A stretch of 64,000 nt of DNA from an uncultured Bacilli bacterium. Its GTDB lineage: Bacteria > Bacillota_I > Bacilli_A > RF39 > UBA660. The first letter of the stretch is position 1; each line of letters begins with the position of its first letter. The position numbers were made by a program, and so were the translations under genes. The notes under the pieces were generated by a model. It did no database searches. It saw only the letters and a list, made by a program, of their open reading frames with translations, and had not been told where the DNA came from. This document shows positions 6,855-15,432 of the stretch, one piece after another. The DNA lies in NCBI GenBank assembly GCA_947629235.1, contig CANRCX010000002.1, positions 20,824-84,823 on the forward strand, read 5' to 3'.

Positions 6855-8381
6855 ATGAAGACTTATGTTTGTAAAAATTGTGGATATATTGAAACAAAAG
6901 ATGAATTAGAAGATGATTATGTTTGTCCAAAATGTAATGCTTTAAAAGACTCATTTGAAGTGTTTGAAGAAAATTTGGCAGAAAATGAAATAGATGCTAT
7001 TGTTGATTCTGTTATAGAAGATGCAATAGAAAATAACAAACCATCAAAAATAATTAATGATACAAATGAAGAAGAAAAAAGTATTAGAATTAGTGAATAT
7101 AATCATGCTATTTCTAGAATACCTGAAAAATGTATTAATTGTGGACAATGTAAAAAAACGTGTGAAAATATAGTTAATTTAAGATATGATCTAAATAAAT
7201 GTAAAGAACCAATATGTATAGCTTGTGGACAATGTATTTTAAATTGTCCAACTGGAGCATTAACACCAAAATATGATTATAAAGAAGTAAAAGAAATAGT
7301 AGATGCCAATGATAAAATAGTAGTAGCAATTATATCTCCTGCAGTTAGAGTATCAATTGGAGAATGTTTTGGATTAGAACCTGGTGCAAATTCAGAAAAA
7401 AAATTAGTAAGTGCATTAAAACAATTAGGTTTTGATTATGTATTTGATACAGCATTTGGAGCAGATTTAACTGTACTTGAAGAAGTTGCTGAATTTACAG
7501 AAAGATTAAAAAATAAAAAAGCTTTACCACAATTTACTAGTTGTTGTCCAGCATGGGTTAGATATGCAGAAATATACCATCCAGAATTATTAGAGAATTT
7601 ATCAACTTGTAAAAGTCCAATTGGTATGCAATGTGCAATTATAAAAAGCTATTTTTGTGAAAAGAAAGGATTTGATCCTGCTAAAATAGTAACAGTTGCA
7701 ATAACACCATGTACAGCTAAAAAAATGGAAGCTCGTGAATATACATTAAATATAGATTATGTATTAACAGCCAGTGAAATAGAATTATTATTGAAAGAAG
7801 AAGAAATTAAATTAGATGAACTAGAAGATAAAGACTTTGATCAAATAATGGGCGAAAGTAGTGGAGCCGGAGTAATATTTGGAGCAACTGGTGGTGTTTG
7901 TGAATCAATTATTAGAACATTATATAAAATAATGACAAAAAGAAATTTAACAAAGAATGCTCTTAGATTTGAAAGCTTAGAAGGATTTAATGGTATAAAA
8001 GAAGCAAATATAATAATTGGCAAATCAAAAATTAAAGTAGCAGTTGTACAACAAATGGAAAATTTAGAAAAATTATTAGAAAATGATTATTATAAAAATT
8101 TTCATTTAATAGAAGTTATGAATTGTAAAGGTGGATGTATTGGTGGTGGTGGACAACCATTATGTCAAATACCTAAATTAGATGAATATAGAGAAAAGAG
8201 AAGTAAAGGATTATTTAAAATAGATGAGTCAAGAGCAGTAAGAAGTGCACATGACAATACAGAAATAAAAATGCTATATAAAGAATATTTAAAAAATCCA
8301 ATGAGTGATATAAGTTTTAAATTACTTCATACTTCATTTTCAGATAAAAGTAATCTATTAAATGATAAAAATAAAAAGTAG
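6855..8381 (+). CDS. hydA: [FeFe] hydrogenase with an N-terminal rubredoxin-like Zn-ribbon/Cys4 module and two 4Fe-4S ferredoxin motifs
   Basis: H-cluster motifs TSCCPAW, ITPCTAKKMEA and EVMNCKGGCIGGGGQP are present. Ferredoxin motifs are CINCGQCKKTC and CIACGQCILNCP. The N-terminus carries CKNCGY..CPKC. Confidence 0.88.
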   Translation: MKTYVCKNCGYIETKDELEDDYVCPKCNALKDSFEVFEENLAENEIDAIVDSVIEDAIENNKPSKIINDTNEEEKSIRISEYNHAISRIPEKCINCGQCKKTCENIVNLRYDLNKCKEPICIACGQCILNCPTGALTPKYDYKEVKEIVDANDKIVVAIISPAVRVSIGECFGLEPGANSEKKLVSALKQLGFDYVFDTAFGADLTVLEEVAEFTERLKNKKALPQFTSCCPAWVRYAEIYHPELLENLSTCKSPIGMQCAIIKSYFCEKKGFDPAKIVTVAITPCTAKKMEAREYTLNIDYVLTASEIELLLKEEEIKLDELEDKDFDQIMGESSGAGVIFGATGGVCESIIRTLYKIMTKRNLTKNALRFESLEGFNGIKEANIIIGKSKIKVAVVQQMENLEKLLENDYYKNFHLIEVMNCKGGCIGGGGQPLCQIPKLDEYREKRSKGLFKIDESRAVRSAHDNTEIKMLYKEYLKNPMSDISFKLLHTSFSDKSNLLNDKNKK

Positions 8382-8946: not shown

Positions 8947-9303
8947 ATGAGATATATTTTAATATTTGGTGTAACTATTATTTTGACATTATTAATATTA
9001 TTTTATCCACAAAAATATTTAGCAAAATATGAAAATGAAATTAATATTGAATATGATTTTAAAGATGAAGGATATAATTGGAATTATGATATTAATAATG
9101 ACAATATAGTTTTAAAAGAAAATAATGGTGATAAATGGACATTTATACCAAATAAGAATGGAACATCTACAATTACATTTACATATTCTAAAGATGATAA
9201 TATAAAATATAAAATAACATATGATTTAAAAATTAAAGGTAAAAAAATATATTGGTTAAATGGAGAAGGATCTGGATTGTTTAGTTATCCTAATCCTTAT
9301 TAA
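8947..9303 (+). CDS. Small secreted or anchored protein, possibly a chagasin-like (I42) protease inhibitor fold
   Basis: It has an N-terminal TM/signal segment. EGYNWNY and KWTFIPNKNGTSTITFTY loosely recall I42 inhibitor motifs. This is a weak call. Confidence 0.35.
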   Translation: MRYILIFGVTIILTLLILFYPQKYLAKYENEINIEYDFKDEGYNWNYDINNDNIVLKENNGDKWTFIPNKNGTSTITFTYSKDDNIKYKITYDLKIKGKKIYWLNGEGSGLFSYPNPY

Positions 9304-9389: not shown

Positions 9390-10469
9390 ATGGAACCATA
9401 TAAAGCAAAAAAATTACCAATTAATTATGAATTAACACCTGAATTATTAAAACTTTTATGCGAAACAGAAGAAATATATGGTGAATATAAGGGTTTTCTA
9501 AGAAGTATGTCATATGATTATAAATCATTCTTAGAATGTGCTTTTATTAATGATACATATTATTCATTTAAATTGGATGGAAGTAAATTTGATAAAGAAT
9601 ATATGTTTCATATGCCATATATGAATGAAAGTAATGATGTAACACAAGTAAATAATTTAAAAAGGGCATTCTTATTAGGAATATCAGGTGCCGCTAATGG
9701 AAATATAGATATAGAACTTCTAAATAAAATTAATAAAATATTATTTCAAAATTGTAAAAAAGATAATAAAACTAAAGGTAGTGGAAAATTTAGAAAAATT
9801 CAAAATTATTTATTAAAACCTGGTATTGCTGGATCTAGTGTTTCATTTATTCCACCAGTATATACAGAAATAAATGACTTAATGAAAAATTTAGTTGAAT
9901 ATATAAATAATAATACTGATCCAAATTTTATATCAACAATAATTACACATTTTCAATATGAAAAAATACATCCATATGTATCAGGTAATGGTAAAATAGG
10001 TAGATTACTTATACCAATTCAATATTCATTATATAAAAAAGAACCACCAATTTTATTTATTTCTCAAAGTTTAGACAATCTTAAAAACACATATTTTACA
10101 CTTCTTAGTGGAGAAGTAGAAGAAGATATAAATAAATTTATAAAAACAATATTAGAATGTATTATCGAACAATGTACAATAAATATTAAAAAAATTAAAA
10201 AATTAAATAAAATATATGAACATGATTATGAAGAATTTAAAAGTACTATTGGTGGGTCTACAATATATAAAGTATATCCAGTAATAGTTAAAAGAATAGT
10301 ATTTACTACTAATGATTTAGTAAGTGAATGTAAATTACATATAAATTCAGTTAATAAAGTGTTAAATAAATTAGTAGAAAGTGGATATTTAATTAAAGAA
10401 AAAAAGAAAGGTACAAAACGTGTAACTTTCTGCTATAAAAATATGTATGATGTATTTATTAATAATTAA
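9390..10469 (+). CDS. Fic/DOC family protein with an atypical active-site motif and a C-terminal winged-helix-like tail
   Basis: HPYVSGNGKIGRLL aligns to the Fic motif HxFx(D/E)GNGRxxR, with Ser in place of D/E and Lys in place of Arg. SFKLDG lies where the (S/T)xxxE(G/N) inhibitory motif sits. Confidence 0.72.
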   Translation: MEPYKAKKLPINYELTPELLKLLCETEEIYGEYKGFLRSMSYDYKSFLECAFINDTYYSFKLDGSKFDKEYMFHMPYMNESNDVTQVNNLKRAFLLGISGAANGNIDIELLNKINKILFQNCKKDNKTKGSGKFRKIQNYLLKPGIAGSSVSFIPPVYTEINDLMKNLVEYINNNTDPNFISTIITHFQYEKIHPYVSGNGKIGRLLIPIQYSLYKKEPPILFISQSLDNLKNTYFTLLSGEVEEDINKFIKTILECIIEQCTINIKKIKKLNKIYEHDYEEFKSTIGGSTIYKVYPVIVKRIVFTTNDLVSECKLHINSVNKVLNKLVESGYLIKEKKKGTKRVTFCYKNMYDVFINN

Positions 10470-10980
10470 TATCTTCAAGATAAGATATTATTGGTATAAA
10501 ATAATTAATATTATTAGGAGTTATATTTTCAAAATAAATATAGACTCCTTTTTTCTTTTTATTTATATTTTCAATTAAACTTTCAAAGTTTCTTTTATTT
10601 ATATTCATATAATGTGATAAAAAATCAATATTCTTATTATATTTATACATTAACAGTTCTTTATAATTATTATCTAAATCATTAATATTGTTATCAAAAA
10701 GAAATGAATTAAATTCACTATTAATTGTTAATACTATTATATATGTAAGCTCATTTGAACTAATTTTTAAATACTTTTTTAAGTAAGTGATATAATTATC
10801 TATTTTATATAGAAACATCTCTAATTTAGTTATTTTATTGCTTTTAAATATATTAATATTAGTTTCTATTAAATAATTATCAATATTTTCTATTAATTTA
10901 CTAATATTTTCATTCTTTAAAACACTTAATAATCTTTTTTTATTTTTAATATAGGTTTTATTTAACATTTCATCAATCAT
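10459..10980 (-). CDS. Hypothetical protein co-transcribed with an XRE regulator
   Basis: Its start overlaps the XRE stop (TGA at 10973-10975). A GGAGGA RBS lies 6 nt before ATG 10980. Its 3' end overlaps the convergent Fic gene by 11 nt. No family recognised. Confidence 0.5.
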   Translation of the reverse strand: MIDEMLNKTYIKNKKRLLSVLKNENISKLIENIDNYLIETNINIFKSNKITKLEMFLYKIDNYITYLKKYLKISSNELTYIIVLTINSEFNSFLFDNNINDLDNNYKELLMYKYNKNIDFLSHYMNINKRNFESLIENINKKKKGVYIYFENITPNNINYFIPIISYLEDINY

Positions 10981-11218
10981 CATTATCCTCCAAAAACTTA
11001 TCAATTGGAACTTTAAGTATTATAGATATTTTATATAAATTAATAATTCCAATTCCTTTAATAGTTTTTTCACTTTCTAAACTACTAATTAATGAAACAG
11101 AGACATCAGCTTCTTCAGCAAGTTTTTCTTGAGTCATCTTTCCTATATTTATATTATAAAATTTTCTATATTTTTTTATGTTTTTTCCTATTATTTTATA
11201 CAATTCTTGCTGATTCAT
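10973..11218 (-). CDS. XRE-family HTH regulator (paralog A)
   Basis: IGKNIKKYRK..MTQEKLAEEADVSVSLISSLES is an HTH_3-type motif. It is a close paralog of 11579-11839. Confidence 0.8.
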   Translation of the reverse strand: MNQQELYKIIGKNIKKYRKFYNINIGKMTQEKLAEEADVSVSLISSLESEKTIKGIGIINLYKISIILKVPIDKFLEDNDD

Positions 11219-11320
11219 AAGAATTCACCTACCTAATTATAAAATATTTATCTAATAATGTATAGTATCACATTACATTAATATTTTATGAAAATGTGTA
11301 CAATTAAATTGGGTGAAAAT

Positions 11321-11578
11321 ATGACAAGATTTAAAAGAGACTTTAATTTTGATAGTGATTTTATTAAAACAGTTGCATACAATGTTATTAAATATAGAAA
11401 ATTAAATAAAATTACTCAAGAGCAATTAGCCCTAGATATAGGAGTATCACCTGAGTTTATTAGAAAATTTGAAAGTACAAAAGGAAGTGAAGGTTTATCT
11501 TTAGCTTCTTTATATAAAATATCAATAGTTTTAGATACTAGCATGGACAAGTTCTTTGAATCAATTGAAGAAGAATAA
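11321..11578 (+). CDS. XRE-family HTH regulator (paralog B), divergent from paralog A
   Basis: VIKYRKLNKITQEQLALDIGVSPEFIRKFES fits an XRE HTH. A GGGTGA RBS precedes ATG 11321; ATG 11288 is an alternative start. Confidence 0.75.
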   Translation: MTRFKRDFNFDSDFIKTVAYNVIKYRKLNKITQEQLALDIGVSPEFIRKFESTKGSEGLSLASLYKISIVLDTSMDKFFESIEEE

Positions 11579-11839
11579 TTATCTATCTATAAAAAATTTT
11601 TCTATTGGTACTTCCAATATATTACTTATTTTATACAAATTATAAATACTTATCCCTTGATAAGTTTTTTTACTTTCTAAATTACCAATTAGAGAAGTTG
11701 AAACATTAGCAATTTCAGCTAGATTTTCTTGTGTTAATTCTTTTTTATTAAGACTATATAATTTTCTATAATATCTAATATTTTTTCCAATAATGGCATA
11801 TAAATCTTTTTCATTTTTAAATATGTATTCTTTTTCCAT
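11579..11839 (-). CDS. XRE-family HTH regulator (paralog C)
   Basis: IGKNIRYYRKLYSLNKKELTQENLAEIANVSTSLIGNLES fits an XRE HTH. Its stop abuts the stop of paralog B (TAATTA at 11576-11581). Confidence 0.8.
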   Translation of the reverse strand: MEKEYIFKNEKDLYAIIGKNIRYYRKLYSLNKKELTQENLAEIANVSTSLIGNLESKKTYQGISIYNLYKISNILEVPIEKFFIDR

Positions 11840-12006: not shown

Positions 12007-13809
12007 ATGGATAAAATAATTAATTTTGCAGTAGTAGCACATGTTGATGCTGGAAAAAGTACACTAGTTGATGCTTTATTAAAACAAAATGGTGTATTTA
12101 GAGAAAATGAACAAGTTGTAGATTGTGTTATGGATAGTGGAGATTTAGAAAGAGAAAGAGGAATAACTATCACTGCTAAAAACTGTGCTATTAGATACAA
12201 AGGTTACAAAATGAATATAGTAGATACTCCAGGACATGCTGATTTTTCAAGTGAAATTGAAAGAATTATTAAAACAGTTGATACTGTAGTATTATTAGTA
12301 GATTCAGCAGAAGGTCCAATGCCTCAAACAAGATTTGTATTAAAAGAAGCATTACAAAATGGACTTAAACCTATATTATTTATTAATAAAATAGATAAAA
12401 AAGATGCAAGAAGTGAAGAAGTTGTTAATATGACTTTTGATTTATTCTGTGAACTTAATGCTACAAATGAACAATTAGATTTTAAGATTATATATGGAAT
12501 TGCAAAAGAAGGTATAGCAAAGTATGAAGAAAATGATGATAATAATGATATAACACCACTTCTTGATACAATTATTGAAACAACTAAGCCATTTGAAGGA
12601 AATGAAAATGATCCATTACAATTTCAAATTTCATCATTAGACTATGATGATTACATTGGTCGTCTTGGAATTGGTAGAATTAATAAAGGTAAAATTACTA
12701 CAGGACAAAGCGTAACAATTTCTAAAAATGATGGTACTGTTGTAAAAGAGAAAATAACTAAAATATTTGTAAATGAAGGTATTAAGAAAAAAGAAGTAAA
12801 TACTGCATATTATGGAGATATCGTAACTATTGCAGGTTGTCCTGATATTTCAATTGGTGATACAATTTGTGATAATGATCATATTGATCCACTACCAAGT
12901 ATTGAAATAGAAAAACCAACTCTATCAATGAACTTCTTAGTAAATACTAGTCCTTTTGCAGGTAAAGTTGGAAAATTTGTAACATCTAGACATTTAAGAG
13001 ATAGATTAATGGCAGAACTTGAAAGAAATGTAGGACTTGAAGTAGAAGAATTACCTAATGGAGATGGATTTAAAGTTTCTGGTCGTGGTGAACTTCACTT
13101 ATCAATATTGATTGAAAATATGAGAAGAGAAGGATATGAACTTGGTGTATCAAAACCAGAAGTTATATTTAAAGAAATAGATGGTCAAAAACAAGAACCA
13201 TTTGAAAAAGTTGTTATTAACGTACCTAATGAATATTCTGGAACAATTATTAGTGATTTAAGTGAAAGAAAAGGTACTATGGAATTAATGGAACCAGCTG
13301 AAGAAAATTATGTAAGATTAGAATTTTCTGTTCCAACAAGAGGTTTAATTGGATATAGAAGTAATTTCATTACAAATACTAAAGGTGAAGGTATTATGGT
13401 TAGAAGCTTTGAATCTTATAAACCATATGCAGGTGAAATAGCTTCTAGAAAAAATGGAGTACTAGTATCTATGGAAAGTGGAAAAACATTTGGTTATGCA
13501 CTTTATAACTTATTAGATAGAGGTACTATGATAGTAGAACCATCAGTAGATGTATATTCTGGTCAAATAGTTGGTATTAATAATAGAGAAAATGATTTAA
13601 ATGTAAATCCATGCAAAAATAAAGAATTTTCAAATACACGTTCAACAAGTAGTGATGAAGCAATAGCTCTTCCAAGACCAAAAACATTTACTTTAGAAGA
13701 AGCACTTGAATTTATTGAAAGTGATGAACTTGTAGAAGTAACACCTGATGCTATTAGATTAAGAAAGAAAATTCTTGATGAAAAAGAAAGATTTAGAAGT
13801 CATAGATAA
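12007..13809 (+). CDS. typA: Translational GTPase TypA/BipA
   Basis: G1 AHVDAGKSTL, G3 DTPGHADF and G4 NKID are present, in an EF-G-like domain layout of 600 aa. Confidence 0.93.
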   Translation: MDKIINFAVVAHVDAGKSTLVDALLKQNGVFRENEQVVDCVMDSGDLERERGITITAKNCAIRYKGYKMNIVDTPGHADFSSEIERIIKTVDTVVLLVDSAEGPMPQTRFVLKEALQNGLKPILFINKIDKKDARSEEVVNMTFDLFCELNATNEQLDFKIIYGIAKEGIAKYEENDDNNDITPLLDTIIETTKPFEGNENDPLQFQISSLDYDDYIGRLGIGRINKGKITTGQSVTISKNDGTVVKEKITKIFVNEGIKKKEVNTAYYGDIVTIAGCPDISIGDTICDNDHIDPLPSIEIEKPTLSMNFLVNTSPFAGKVGKFVTSRHLRDRLMAELERNVGLEVEELPNGDGFKVSGRGELHLSILIENMRREGYELGVSKPEVIFKEIDGQKQEPFEKVVINVPNEYSGTIISDLSERKGTMELMEPAEENYVRLEFSVPTRGLIGYRSNFITNTKGEGIMVRSFESYKPYAGEIASRKNGVLVSMESGKTFGYALYNLLDRGTMIVEPSVDVYSGQIVGINNRENDLNVNPCKNKEFSNTRSTSSDEAIALPRPKTFTLEEALEFIESDELVEVTPDAIRLRKKILDEKERFRSHR

Positions 13810-13813
13810 TAAA

Positions 13814-13842
13814 AATAGGATAAATAAATTATCCTATTTTTT
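13814..13842. terminator. Bidirectional terminator between typA and the convergent membrane-protein gene
   Basis: A perfect 10-bp stem AATAGGATAA / TTATCCTATT with a 5-nt loop is flanked by an A run on one side and a T run on the other. Confidence 0.75.
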
Positions 13843-14358
13843 AAGTTTAAATTTATAAATTATTTTAGCTACTGTAAATATAATATCATCACTATTCTTT
13901 ATAGCAATTTTTTTACCAATAGCTTTTCCACCAACAGTGAGAGATGATACTATTGAACTTATTATTAATGTTGTTAAAATAGTTGAAATATTTAATGAAT
14001 TTGAAATATATATTCCAATAATAGCACTAATAGAACCACTAACTATACCACATATATCTCCAATAACATCATTACATACACTAGCAATTCTACTTGAATT
14101 TTTTATTAAATAAACTCCTTCTTTAGAGCCTTTTATCTTTTTAGAACTCATAGAGTGAAATGTAGATTCATTAGCAGTTAGTACAGCAGTACCAATTATA
14201 TCAAATATAATACCTATAAAAATAAATATAATTGCAACTAATAATAAAATAAAAATATTTTCGCATTTATTTGTAATGACATTTGATATACTATTAAAAA
14301 TTATAGCTATAAAAAAAGTCATTAAAAATGCTTTAATGATCCAATTATCTTTTTTCAT
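13834..14358 (-). CDS. Small polytopic membrane protein, possibly a stand-alone CNNM/DUF21-like transmembrane domain
   Basis: It has four hydrophobic segments. TANESTFHSMSSKKIKGSKEG..LIKNSSRIASVCNDVIGD loosely resembles the DUF21 pattern (sE.A..S.s...l..l...g). An AAGGGAG RBS is present. Confidence 0.35.
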   Translation of the reverse strand: MKKDNWIIKAFLMTFFIAIIFNSISNVITNKCENIFILLLVAIIFIFIGIIFDIIGTAVLTANESTFHSMSSKKIKGSKEGVYLIKNSSRIASVCNDVIGDICGIVSGSISAIIGIYISNSLNISTILTTLIISSIVSSLTVGGKAIGKKIAIKNSDDIIFTVAKIIYKFKLKK

Positions 14359-14399
14359 TTTTAATAAACTCCCTTTAAAAAATTTGTATGGATTATTAT

Positions 14400-14848
14400 A
14401 AATTAATTTTACGGCTTTGGTCGAGTTGAATTTCTCTAATATCTACCCTTAGTTACCTGTAGGCAATTTCTTTTTAAAGATATTAATCATAAGTTACCTT
14501 GTATGATCACTCGATCACCACTTAGTCCGCACTTCAATCTTTATAATAAAGACACACTAGAGGTTTTCCCAAACAAACATATGACACTTTTATTCGCTTT
14601 TGCAATTTATTTTTCAAAAAGTAATTATCCCAACAAATCACTCACGACATGTGCATATCATCACTTCACGGATTGAAAAAAGGATTACATATACATGCCA
14701 TTGCATATTTTCCTTAAATCTAAAATTATATATTCACCCCAATCTGGGCGAAAGAAGCAAAATATATAAAGTTCCTTCTTGCACAATTAATGGATTTTTA
14801 GCCCCATCTTCTAGTGGTATGGTTGACTAGCATAATGCTCCATACGAA
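14400..14848 (-). ncRNA. Candidate structured non-coding RNA, or a long structured 5' leader of 13834-14358 (class unassigned)
   Basis: It lies downstream of a perfect promoter, has no credible ORF, and is visibly more G+C-rich than the neighbouring spacers. There are several hairpins: 14817-14845, 14682-14715 followed by U6, 14487-14506 and 14443-14462. The last two present the same loop 8-mer, AGGUAACU. Confidence 0.4.
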
Positions 14849-14852
14849 TAAC

Positions 14853-14881
14853 ATTATATCATAAAACTCTTAAAATGTCAA
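14853..14881 (-). promoter_or_regulatory. Perfect sigma-A promoter on the minus strand (TTGACA, 17-nt spacer, TGaTATAAT)
   Basis: The reverse complement of 14876-14881 is TTGACA and that of 14853-14858 is TATAAT. The spacer is exactly 17 nt, with an extended -10 TG. Confidence 0.65.
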
Positions 14882-15052
14882 AAATCACACTATAGAGTAT
14901 AATTAATAATATTAATTTAAATTTAAAAAAATTACTAAATTATATACATTATTTAATAAAAATATAGTAAAAAAATAAAAATAATAAAATATTATATATT
15001 TAAAAATATTAAAAATCATAGTTTTTATTTATATTTTTTTCTAAAAAAAATA

Positions 15053-15081
15053 TTGTTAAATGGAACTTTGTGTGCTATAAT
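15053..15081 (+). promoter_or_regulatory. rpsF operon promoter (TTGTTA, 17-nt spacer, TGcTATAAT) followed by a short hairpin leader
   Basis: TTGTTA is at 15053-15058 and TATAAT at 15076-15081. The leader contains ACTTTCGaaCGAAAAGT before the AAGGAGG RBS, consistent with the S6:S18-binding rpsF leader described in Firmicutes. Confidence 0.5.
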
Positions 15082-15144
15082 ACTTTCGAACGAAAAGTTC
15101 CTTGCTTCATTTAGAAGCCGTTTAGACCAAAAGGAGGTGTAATA

Positions 15145-15432
15145 ATGAACAAATATGAGATAATGTTTATTGTTAAGACTGATATTGATGAAAAAGCACA
15201 AAAAGATACAGTATCTGCTTTTGAAAAAGTACTTACTGATATGAAAGCTAAAGTAGTTAATACTAAGGATATGGGACAAAAAAAATTAGCATATCCAATT
15301 AACAAACAACTAAGAGGTAATTATTATGTATTTAATGTAGAAGCATCAGCTGCTGCAGTAAAAGAATTTGATCGTAAAGCAAAAATCGATGAAAATATCT
15401 TAAGACATATTATCATAAGAGAAGAGGAGTAG
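15145..15432 (+). CDS. rpsF: 30S ribosomal protein S6
   Basis: MNKYEIMFIV.. start and the conserved rpsF-ssb-rpsR gene order. Confidence 0.93.
   Translation: MNKYEIMFIVKTDIDEKAQKDTVSAFEKVLTDMKAKVVNTKDMGQKKLAYPINKQLRGNYYVFNVEASAAAVKEFDRKAKIDENILRHIIIREEE

Follow-up and report, generated by a model that had tools for sequence, protein, structure and literature searches.

The structured RNA encoded upstream of a CNNM-like membrane protein gene in a gut Bacilli genome is an OLE RNA of an already described short form

A 64,000-nt stretch of the genome of an uncultured Bacilli bacterium (contig CANRCX010000002.1, hereafter the window) carries the gene ole for an OLE (ornate, large, extremophilic) RNA in the 786-bp gap (14359-15144) between a minus-strand open reading frame (ORF) of 174 aa (13834-14358) and the plus-strand gene rpsF (15145-15432). 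A first-pass annotation of the DNA letters had left the structured transcript of this gap unmatched to any RNA family, listing OLE among those to be scanned for. It was the OLE family (RF01071) that an Rfam scan of the whole window returned, at 14372-14859 on the minus strand and with 214.7 bits compared to a gathering threshold of 50; the 488-nt match spans model positions 1-616 and is not truncated. In a permissive scan of 14250-15000 the E-value of 5.4e-61 excluded a chance match, and no riboswitch, T-box, 6S, tmRNA, ydaO or other large ornate RNA was detected in this interval at E<=1. This includes ROOL, GOLLD, raiA and M-box, which like ydaO are large or structured Bacillota RNAs and in some cases are situated 5' of transporter genes. 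Besides OLE, the permissive Rfam scans gave only chance-level matches to SNORD45 (E 0.46) and the GmglnB1 5'UTR (E 0.22). The near-invariant blocks of OLE RNA, about 25% of its positions (CUAGUCA, CUAAAAAUCC, GCCCAG, AAUGGCAU, GGACUAAGUGGU and GACCAAAGCCG), are all found in the window and are invariant among its close relatives. Hence 14372-14859 is an OLE RNA, neither a new RNA family nor a riboswitch, and the feature represents an already known family in an already described short form. We assign a probability of about 0.93 to the reading that this is an ole gene from an anaerobic, AT-rich gut Bacilli, coding for a short OLE RNA of the variant 2 type.

The product of the 174-aa ORF is OapA, OLE-associated membrane protein A, of which the protein collection holds more than 3,800 homologues. 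Genomic loci were taken for the best 80 of them, which derive from uncultured gut 'Bacilli', 'Tenericutes', 'Mycoplasmatota' and Clostridia metagenome-assembled genomes (MAGs). A nucleotide profile search located OLE-like sequence directly 5' of the oapA homologue in most of these 80 loci. All 18 complete close loci carry an OLE match of 479-492 nt and 202-232 bits in this position, whereas the OLEs of distant loci are 548-673 nt long and reach 317-558 bits with the Rfam model. The window RNA was aligned with 18 relatives, and in the resulting consensus fold of 123 pairs 99.3% of the cells are paired across the 19 sequences. Compensatory changes were observed at 44 of the 123 pairs, compared to 19.5 +/- 2.7 in column shuffles, none of which reached 44 in 500 trials; sliding the partners by 1-3 columns left 6-10 compensatory pairs. 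RNA identity to the relatives averages 84%, while the second and third codon positions of oapA are 88% and 60% identical, respectively. These data establish the window RNA as a genuine structured RNA on which purifying selection acts, and the covariation that the first-pass annotation had proposed to look for in homologous regions is present.

Helices were named from the order of elements in published OLE descriptions; all lie on the minus strand. The 460-nt core of the RNA (14386-14845) is bounded by the two strands of P1, GUAUGGA (14845-14839) and UCCAUAC (14392-14386), whose pairing is kept in 100% of the 19 sequences and holds in distant OLEs too. The first-pass annotation had instead folded the 5' strand into a local GUAUGG/CCAUAC hairpin, which is only 79% paired; in the distant OLEs L065 and L078 P1 holds and the 5' strand has no local partner at all. 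Within the clade, a local 5' hairpin GUAUG/CAUAC (14845-14841 with 14821-14817) competes with P1 and upper P3, and one of its column pairs (AU 12, GC 5, GU 2) shows tighter covariation than its P1 counterpart. This hairpin is not present in distant OLEs and may be a clade-specific alternative, a folding intermediate or a co-transcriptional fold.

Inside P1, helix P2 (14834-14827 with 14560-14553) encloses P3 (14825-14818 with 14581-14574) and P3.1 (14816-14813 with 14588-14585), the latter with covariation at all 4 pairs. P3 and P3.1 together comprise about 12 bp, matching the proposed membrane-spanning stem of PMC12265935. A long-range CACUAGA/UCUAGUG helix drawn earlier in this part of the RNA did not hold up: it is 83% paired, shows zero compensatory change and performs no better than shuffles. 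UCUAGUG pairs instead with UAUGCUAG in P2, and CACU with AGUG in P3.1, both supported by covariation. Since the region contains three CUAG palindromes, several pairings look possible; this complementarity and that of the local GUAUGG/CCAUAC hairpin exist in the window sequence, yet are not evolutionarily supported pairings.

The P4 hairpin (14808-14803 with 14794-14789) exposes an A-rich loop, GCUAAAAA (14802-14795), which makes a dimer contact in cryo-EM models (PMC12265935), and is followed by a P4a-like helix of the consensus fold (14785-14781 with 14654-14650). P5/P5.1 (14769-14750 with 14744-14726) carries the loop GCCCA (14749-14745) and compensatory changes at 5 of its 16 pairs; its 3' P5.1 strand is the stretch UUGGGGUGAAU previously likened to the ydaO riboswitch, which itself gave no match at E<=1. 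P6/P6.1 (14680-14715) consists of an AAGGA/UCCUU stem and the P6.1 loop AUGGCA (14701-14696). The loops of P4, P5.1 and P6.1 are invariant in the alignment. In H. halodurans the binding site of ribosomal protein bS21 was mapped to the Shine-Dalgarno (SD)/anti-SD mimic of P6 (PMC12054373). A variable 25-nt linker (14655-14679) lacking sequence conservation takes the place of J6/7-P7-P8. Proximal P9 (14647-14632 with 14611-14594), with its conserved GGGAU...UGAAA internal-loop motif, is capped directly by 10 nt (AAUUACUUUU, the cap also being given as GGGAUAAUUACUUUUUGAAA), and the small GGGAAAACC hairpin occupies 14570-14562.

The 3' domain (14395-14547) folds in the consensus into P12, P12.1, P12.2, P13, P14, P14.1 and a P15-like element. 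Here the first-pass reading was correct: the two hairpins at 14487-14506 and 14443-14462 and the enclosing 7-8-bp helix are real and covary. Their twin AGGUAACU loops are GNRA-type GUAA tetraloops of P13 (14497-14494) and P14.1 (14456-14453), enclosed by P14, in which 7 of 8 pairs show compensatory changes. OapB of H. halodurans has its site at the GNRA loop and bulge of P13, and the loop also docks into P12.2 (PMC7936274). Both GNRA loops and the P13 bulge are conserved in the window clade, though RF39 genomes reportedly lack OapB (PMC11332333). The P13 and P14.1 loops may be retained for the intramolecular docking of the tetraloop into P12.2 (PMC7936274).

Transcription of ole and oapA is predicted to start from a minus-strand promoter that combines the -35 hexamer TTGACA (14876-14881), a 17-nt spacer and the extended -10 element TGaTATAAT (14853-14861). 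As the first-pass annotation had stated, it is a perfect site: the promoter scan scored a full match to the -35 hexamer and 12/12 overall plus the TG extension, which no other site in 13700-15200 equals, and the 14 weaker promoter-like sites there are not more numerous than in shuffles. In about 25 related loci TTGACA is equally distant from the 5' end of the RNA, and the complete TTGACA-17-TGnTATAAT motif recurs in about 25 relatives, mostly 7 nt ahead of P1. From the promoter sequence we infer that the transcription start lies about 7 nt past the -10 element, at or next to G14845, the first P1 base. As the promoter is kept 7 nt before P1 in most of these relatives, the RNA 5' end is probably a primary transcript end. 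This differs from full-length OLE, which is processed from a long polycistronic operon including isoprenoid, DNA-repair and other genes.

At the opposite end, the oapA ribosome binding site (RBS) AAAGGGAG (14369-14376, minus strand) is situated 9 nt past the end of P1 and 10 nt before the ATG, so that oapA starts 27 nt past P1, an arrangement also found in related loci. The promoter/terminator scan detected no terminator between P1 and this RBS, in line with the earlier statement that the transcript runs into it. Downstream of oapA, a bidirectional intrinsic terminator (UAGGAUAA-UUUAU-UUAUCCUA followed by a U run; 13806-13836, both strands) serves oapA on the minus and typA on the plus strand, with folding energies of -13.1 kcal/mol (z -4.9) and -11.7 kcal/mol (z -3.9), respectively. 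The 5' arm of this A/U-rich hairpin contains the oapA stop codon. With at most two G-C pairs in its stem, the hairpin escaped the terminator scan.

The oapA product (13834-14358, minus strand) shows the hallmarks of OapA: a DxxxD motif (D97VIGD101), invariant in 22 homologues, zero prolines, four hydrophobic helices, and lysine-rich loops and tail. It matches the Pfam CNNM family (PF01595) with 24.2 bits, under the cutoff of 28.4, and no NCBIfam family; in the PF01595 search of PMC11332333, OapA proteins likewise cluster as the next-best group under true MpfA proteins. No match at E<=10 was obtained in a sequence search of the PDB, hence a fold search was needed. The AlphaFold2 model (pLDDT 82.3) found the transmembrane domains of archaeal and bacterial CNNM proteins of the CorB/CorC type (7M1T, 7M1U and 7CFF) as its top five Foldseek PDB matches, with probability 1.00 and TM-scores of 0.50-0.58, and 7M1U is also the top match that PMC11332333 gives for H. 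halodurans OapA. The sub-threshold CNNM match and the CNNM-like predicted fold uphold the earlier call of a CNNM/DUF21-like protein. In its transmembrane fold OapA most resembles the CNNM transmembrane domain of the Mg2+ transporters MpfA, CorB and CorC, and functional overlap with them is proposed in the literature (PMC11332333). OapA differs from these proteins by the absence of CBS/CorC domains and of the conserved proline, by its DxxxD motif, and by four instead of three transmembrane helices; it has been hypothesized in the literature that OLE RNA stands in for the missing domains.

Compared to full-length OLE (RF01071, as in Halalkalibacterium halodurans, Clostridium acetobutylicum and C. 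botulinum), the window RNA shares P1-P6.1, proximal P9 and P12-P15, the loops CUAAAAAU, GCCCA and AUGGCA, the GNRA loops on P13 and P14.1, the P6 SD/anti-SD mimic and the downstream oapA gene. It differs in length, about 460-490 nt versus about 577-640 nt, and lacks P7, P8 and the L9.3 dimer bridge. In the Rfam alignment J6/7-P7-P8, about 87 model positions with segments [44] and [36], is reduced to 10 + 8 unaligned nt, the distal 48 nt of P9 correspond to 6 nt, and the 12-nt hairpin at model positions 424-435 is missing. Measurements anchored on conserved motifs agree: the P6.1 loop is separated from P9 by 47-55 nt in the window clade, compared to 99-157 nt in longer OLEs. In the clade the distal arm of P9 measures 4-16 nt (10 in the window) and has no G/C palindrome, whereas in longer OLEs it comprises 48-51 nt centred on a GGCC palindrome. 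Among short-form OLEs the distal P9 loss (window 14612-14631, minus strand) is graded. L035, without P7/P8, keeps a 39-nt P9 arm with a GAUC palindrome, and the arm has 22 nt in L050, 15-16 nt in L019-L023 and 4-10 nt in most others including the window. A self-complementary kissing loop in the short P9 cap is not claimed: palindromes of the AAUU type are common in it, as chance alone would produce in loops made up of A and U only.

Short OLEs have been described before. The GTDB search of Fernando & Breaker 2024 distinguishes full-length OLE, variant 1 and variant 2 (PMC11332333). Variant 1, mostly from TANB77, has shorter P7, P8 and P9 and often misses the OapB site; variant 2, common in RF39, is entirely devoid of P7 and P8, retains the remaining conserved nucleotides and scores 235-310 bits on the authors' own OLE model. 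By the same account, OapB and OapC are largely missing from the reduced genomes of the gut lineages with these variants. It is this RF39 variant 2 that the window RNA fits: P7 and P8 are fully gone, the conserved nucleotides are retained, oapA lies directly 3', the hosts are uncultured gut Bacilli with reduced genomes, and the score on the family model is low. With variant 1 it shares a shortened form including P9; it is set apart by the loss of P7/P8, which variant 1 keeps in short form, and by the GNRA loop and bulge kept in P13, at whose end variant 1 often has no OapB site. The window RNA is also devoid of the distal P9 arm and of hairpin 424-435. A shorter P9 is mentioned in the text of the paper for variant 1 and not expressly for variant 2; losing this arm may mark a minor sub-variant, unless the published variant 2 model already includes it. 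It is rather doubtful that the window subclade constitutes a 'minimal OLE' beyond the published variant models, with a core of about 460 nt, P7/P8 and the whole distal P9 arm lost, the contact loops of P4, P5.1 and P6.1 and the OapB-site GNRA loops kept and the 5' end set by a conserved promoter, although the window core is the most reduced natural OLE architecture among the sequences compared. If this were true, the P9 arch and its bridge would be dispensable, and the RNA would make a convenient construct for structural and OapA-binding studies.

Several observations weigh against assigning the region to a short, variant 2-type ole gene of a gut Bacilli. The RNA is about 120 nt below full-length OLE and thereby shorter than the family norm, and its 214.7 bits are less than half of what full-length members reach (317-558 bits). 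The palindromic GGCC/GAUC loop L9.3, which forms the intermolecular bridge B3 of the OLE dimer (PMC12286853) and is one of four published dimer contacts, is deleted, so that dimerisation cannot simply be assumed. An OapC-type k-turn, sought by hand in J4a/5 and J5/6, was not confidently recognised, and no call was made because relatives vary in the GA/AG signature of the 3' strand (AGA, AGU, AGG, AAA). A scan of 10 small ORFs of the window detected no KOW or L7Ae domain, indicative of OapB and OapC (YbxF), respectively, a negative that speaks for these 64 kb only. Furthermore, the host probably belongs to the RF39 order by an indirect placement, and expression of the transcript as well as its 5' and 3' ends in this organism are predictions from sequence.

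The strongest competing explanation is that the RNA acts in cis as a riboswitch or attenuator leader which senses a ligand such as Mg2+ and controls the CNNM-like gene. The RNA and oapA indeed form one transcription unit with no terminator between them and an RBS only 9 nt past P1, OapA is related to Mg2+ transporters, and OLE knock-outs are Mg2+-sensitive (PMC12265935). Yet no riboswitch family matches at E<=1, the RBS is located outside the structured core, and the sole terminator-like element, P6/P6.1 with six U, combines a weak stem with an unconserved U-run and forms part of a helix that is kept throughout the OLE family. Moreover, OLE is documented as an abundant, stable, OapA-binding component of a ribonucleoprotein (RNP) (PMC12265935, PMC9723947). 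Of the riboswitch-type leader suggested in the first-pass annotation, the part that stands is a structured RNA co-transcribed with a CNNM-like gene; OLE is known from earlier work as a trans-acting partner in an OapA RNP, and we consider control in cis very improbable.

Still less probable is a degenerating, non-functional OLE relic in a reduced genome. The losses of P7, P8, the distal P9 arm and the small hairpin would be compatible with decay, as would the reported scarcity of OapB and OapC in RF39 genomes (PMC11332333). However, the same short architecture persists across loci whose OapA proteins are 50-80% identical, RNA identity amounts to 84% with compensatory changes and a conserved consensus promoter, and oapA is intact with invariant signature residues. 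Neither disrupted helices nor a frameshifted oapA were seen in 35 short-form loci within the promoter, covariation, identity and signature-residue analyses.

The hairpin at 14676-14715, which the first-pass annotation had taken for a terminator or attenuator, is real and covaries, but it is P6/P6.1 of the OLE fold. This bears on the possibility that the promoter yields an independent small RNA, about 170 nt long and terminating at this hairpin and its six U, while the rest is an unrelated leader. The U6 tail is specific to the window sequence; most relatives lack the U-run and read UCCUUUUAUU, UCCUUAAUUC and similar, the hairpin is weak (-8.7 kcal/mol, z -1.85), and the promoter/terminator scan made no call there. 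Helices P1, P2, P3, P3.1 and P4a bridge the two flanks of the hairpin and show compensatory changes, which leaves hardly any room for an independent short transcript.

Composition and coding potential agreed with the earlier description of an ORF-free transcript of about 450 nt that is richer in G+C than its spacer. G+C content is 30-34% across 14400-14899, whereas the spacer (14800-15099) has 10-18% and the neighbouring portion of oapA 16-21%; the core measures 460 nt and the longest stop-free runs on the sense strand are 31-35 codons. The antisense ORF of 76 aa (14600-14830, plus strand), rightly judged not protein-like before, has no Pfam match, and no open frame on either strand is kept in place or in frame among the 18 relatives compared. 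A decayed protein-coding gene, which the first-pass annotation had raised as an alternative on account of a 33-codon stop-free run on the minus strand and to which the 76-81-codon open frame on the plus strand might be added, has a negligible probability, as the 18 relatives do not share the frame, position or length of their open frames, the antisense ORF is without a Pfam match and substitutions are compensatory inside RNA helices.

The genomic neighbourhood of the window locus recurs in its closest relatives, in which ole-oapA is flanked by typA on one side and the rpsF-ssb-rpsR operon on the other, additional genes often intervening. In H. halodurans, by comparison, ole is part of a large mixed operon (PMC12265935). 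The spacer at 14900-15099, 200 nt with 10% G+C, separates the divergent ole and rpsF promoters, and a plus-strand TTGTTA-17-TGnTATAAT element at 15053-15081 probably drives rpsF-ssb-rpsR. A permissive Rfam scan (E<=1) of 14860-15200 revealed no leader motif before rpsF. One relative with the same short OLE, L066 (Candidatus Coprovivens), has been assigned to RF39 (PMC8035907). OLE hosts are anaerobic or extremophilic Bacillota, and the relatives of the window (MAGs of gut Bacilli, 'Tenericutes' and Clostridia) as well as an Fe-only hydrogenase conform to this. The hydrogenase, with an N-terminal rubredoxin-like domain (6855-8381, plus strand), indicates an anaerobic fermentative host.

Two further features were noted in the window. 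A PGK RNA motif (RF03040; 8734-8826, plus strand; 81.9 bits vs 50.8) precedes a 118-aa ORF (8947-9303) that has no confident Pfam family, and the motif also occurs in the related locus L002 at 7671-7763. Near typA, a cluster at 9390-11839 comprises a Fic-domain gene (9390-10469), an unassigned ORF of 181 aa and three small genes for HTH proteins of the XRE type (10973-11218, 11288-11578 and 11579-11839), and may be a toxin-antitoxin or mobile-element remnant.

For the function of the window RNA we propose the following scheme. A sigma-70-type consensus promoter would start the transcript at or next to the first P1 nucleotide, and the transcript would span the 460-nt RNA and oapA and end at the hairpin common to typA. 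The RNA adopts the two-domain OLE architecture, P1-P6 with proximal P9 on the one hand and P12-P15 on the other. By analogy to work in H. halodurans and clostridia, an OapA dimer in the membrane would bind it; binding of OLE RNA by OapA, and its anchoring at the membrane by this protein, have been demonstrated in H. halodurans only (cited in PMC12265935). OLE is known as a membrane-localised RNP with a dimeric RNA, the deletion of which causes stress phenotypes (PMC12265935, PMC12286853). Based on clostridial cryo-EM structures, the window RNA probably dimerises via the loop contacts of P4 and P5.1/P6.1. Judging from the characterised systems, the membrane-embedded RNP may aid against alcohols, cold, excess Mg2+ and poor carbon sources, and would probably modulate a divalent-cation function linked to OapA. 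Its composition would be minimal, RNA plus OapA, as is typical of reduced gut Bacilli.

Altogether, an apparently orphan, 'riboswitch-like' transcript is resolved as a member of a curated family that a routine Rfam scan finds. As the short form has already been reported for such organisms, nothing new needs explaining; possible novelty is confined to the extent of the reduction, namely the loss of the P9 arch, and to the promoter-defined 5' end. OLE is among the largest bacterial RNAs of unknown biochemical function, and its mechanism is still unknown in the field. A reduced natural OLE next to an intact oapA shows which parts are dispensable, namely P7, P8, the P9 arch and the small hairpin, and which are under strong selection, namely P1-P6.1, proximal P9 and the entire 3' domain.

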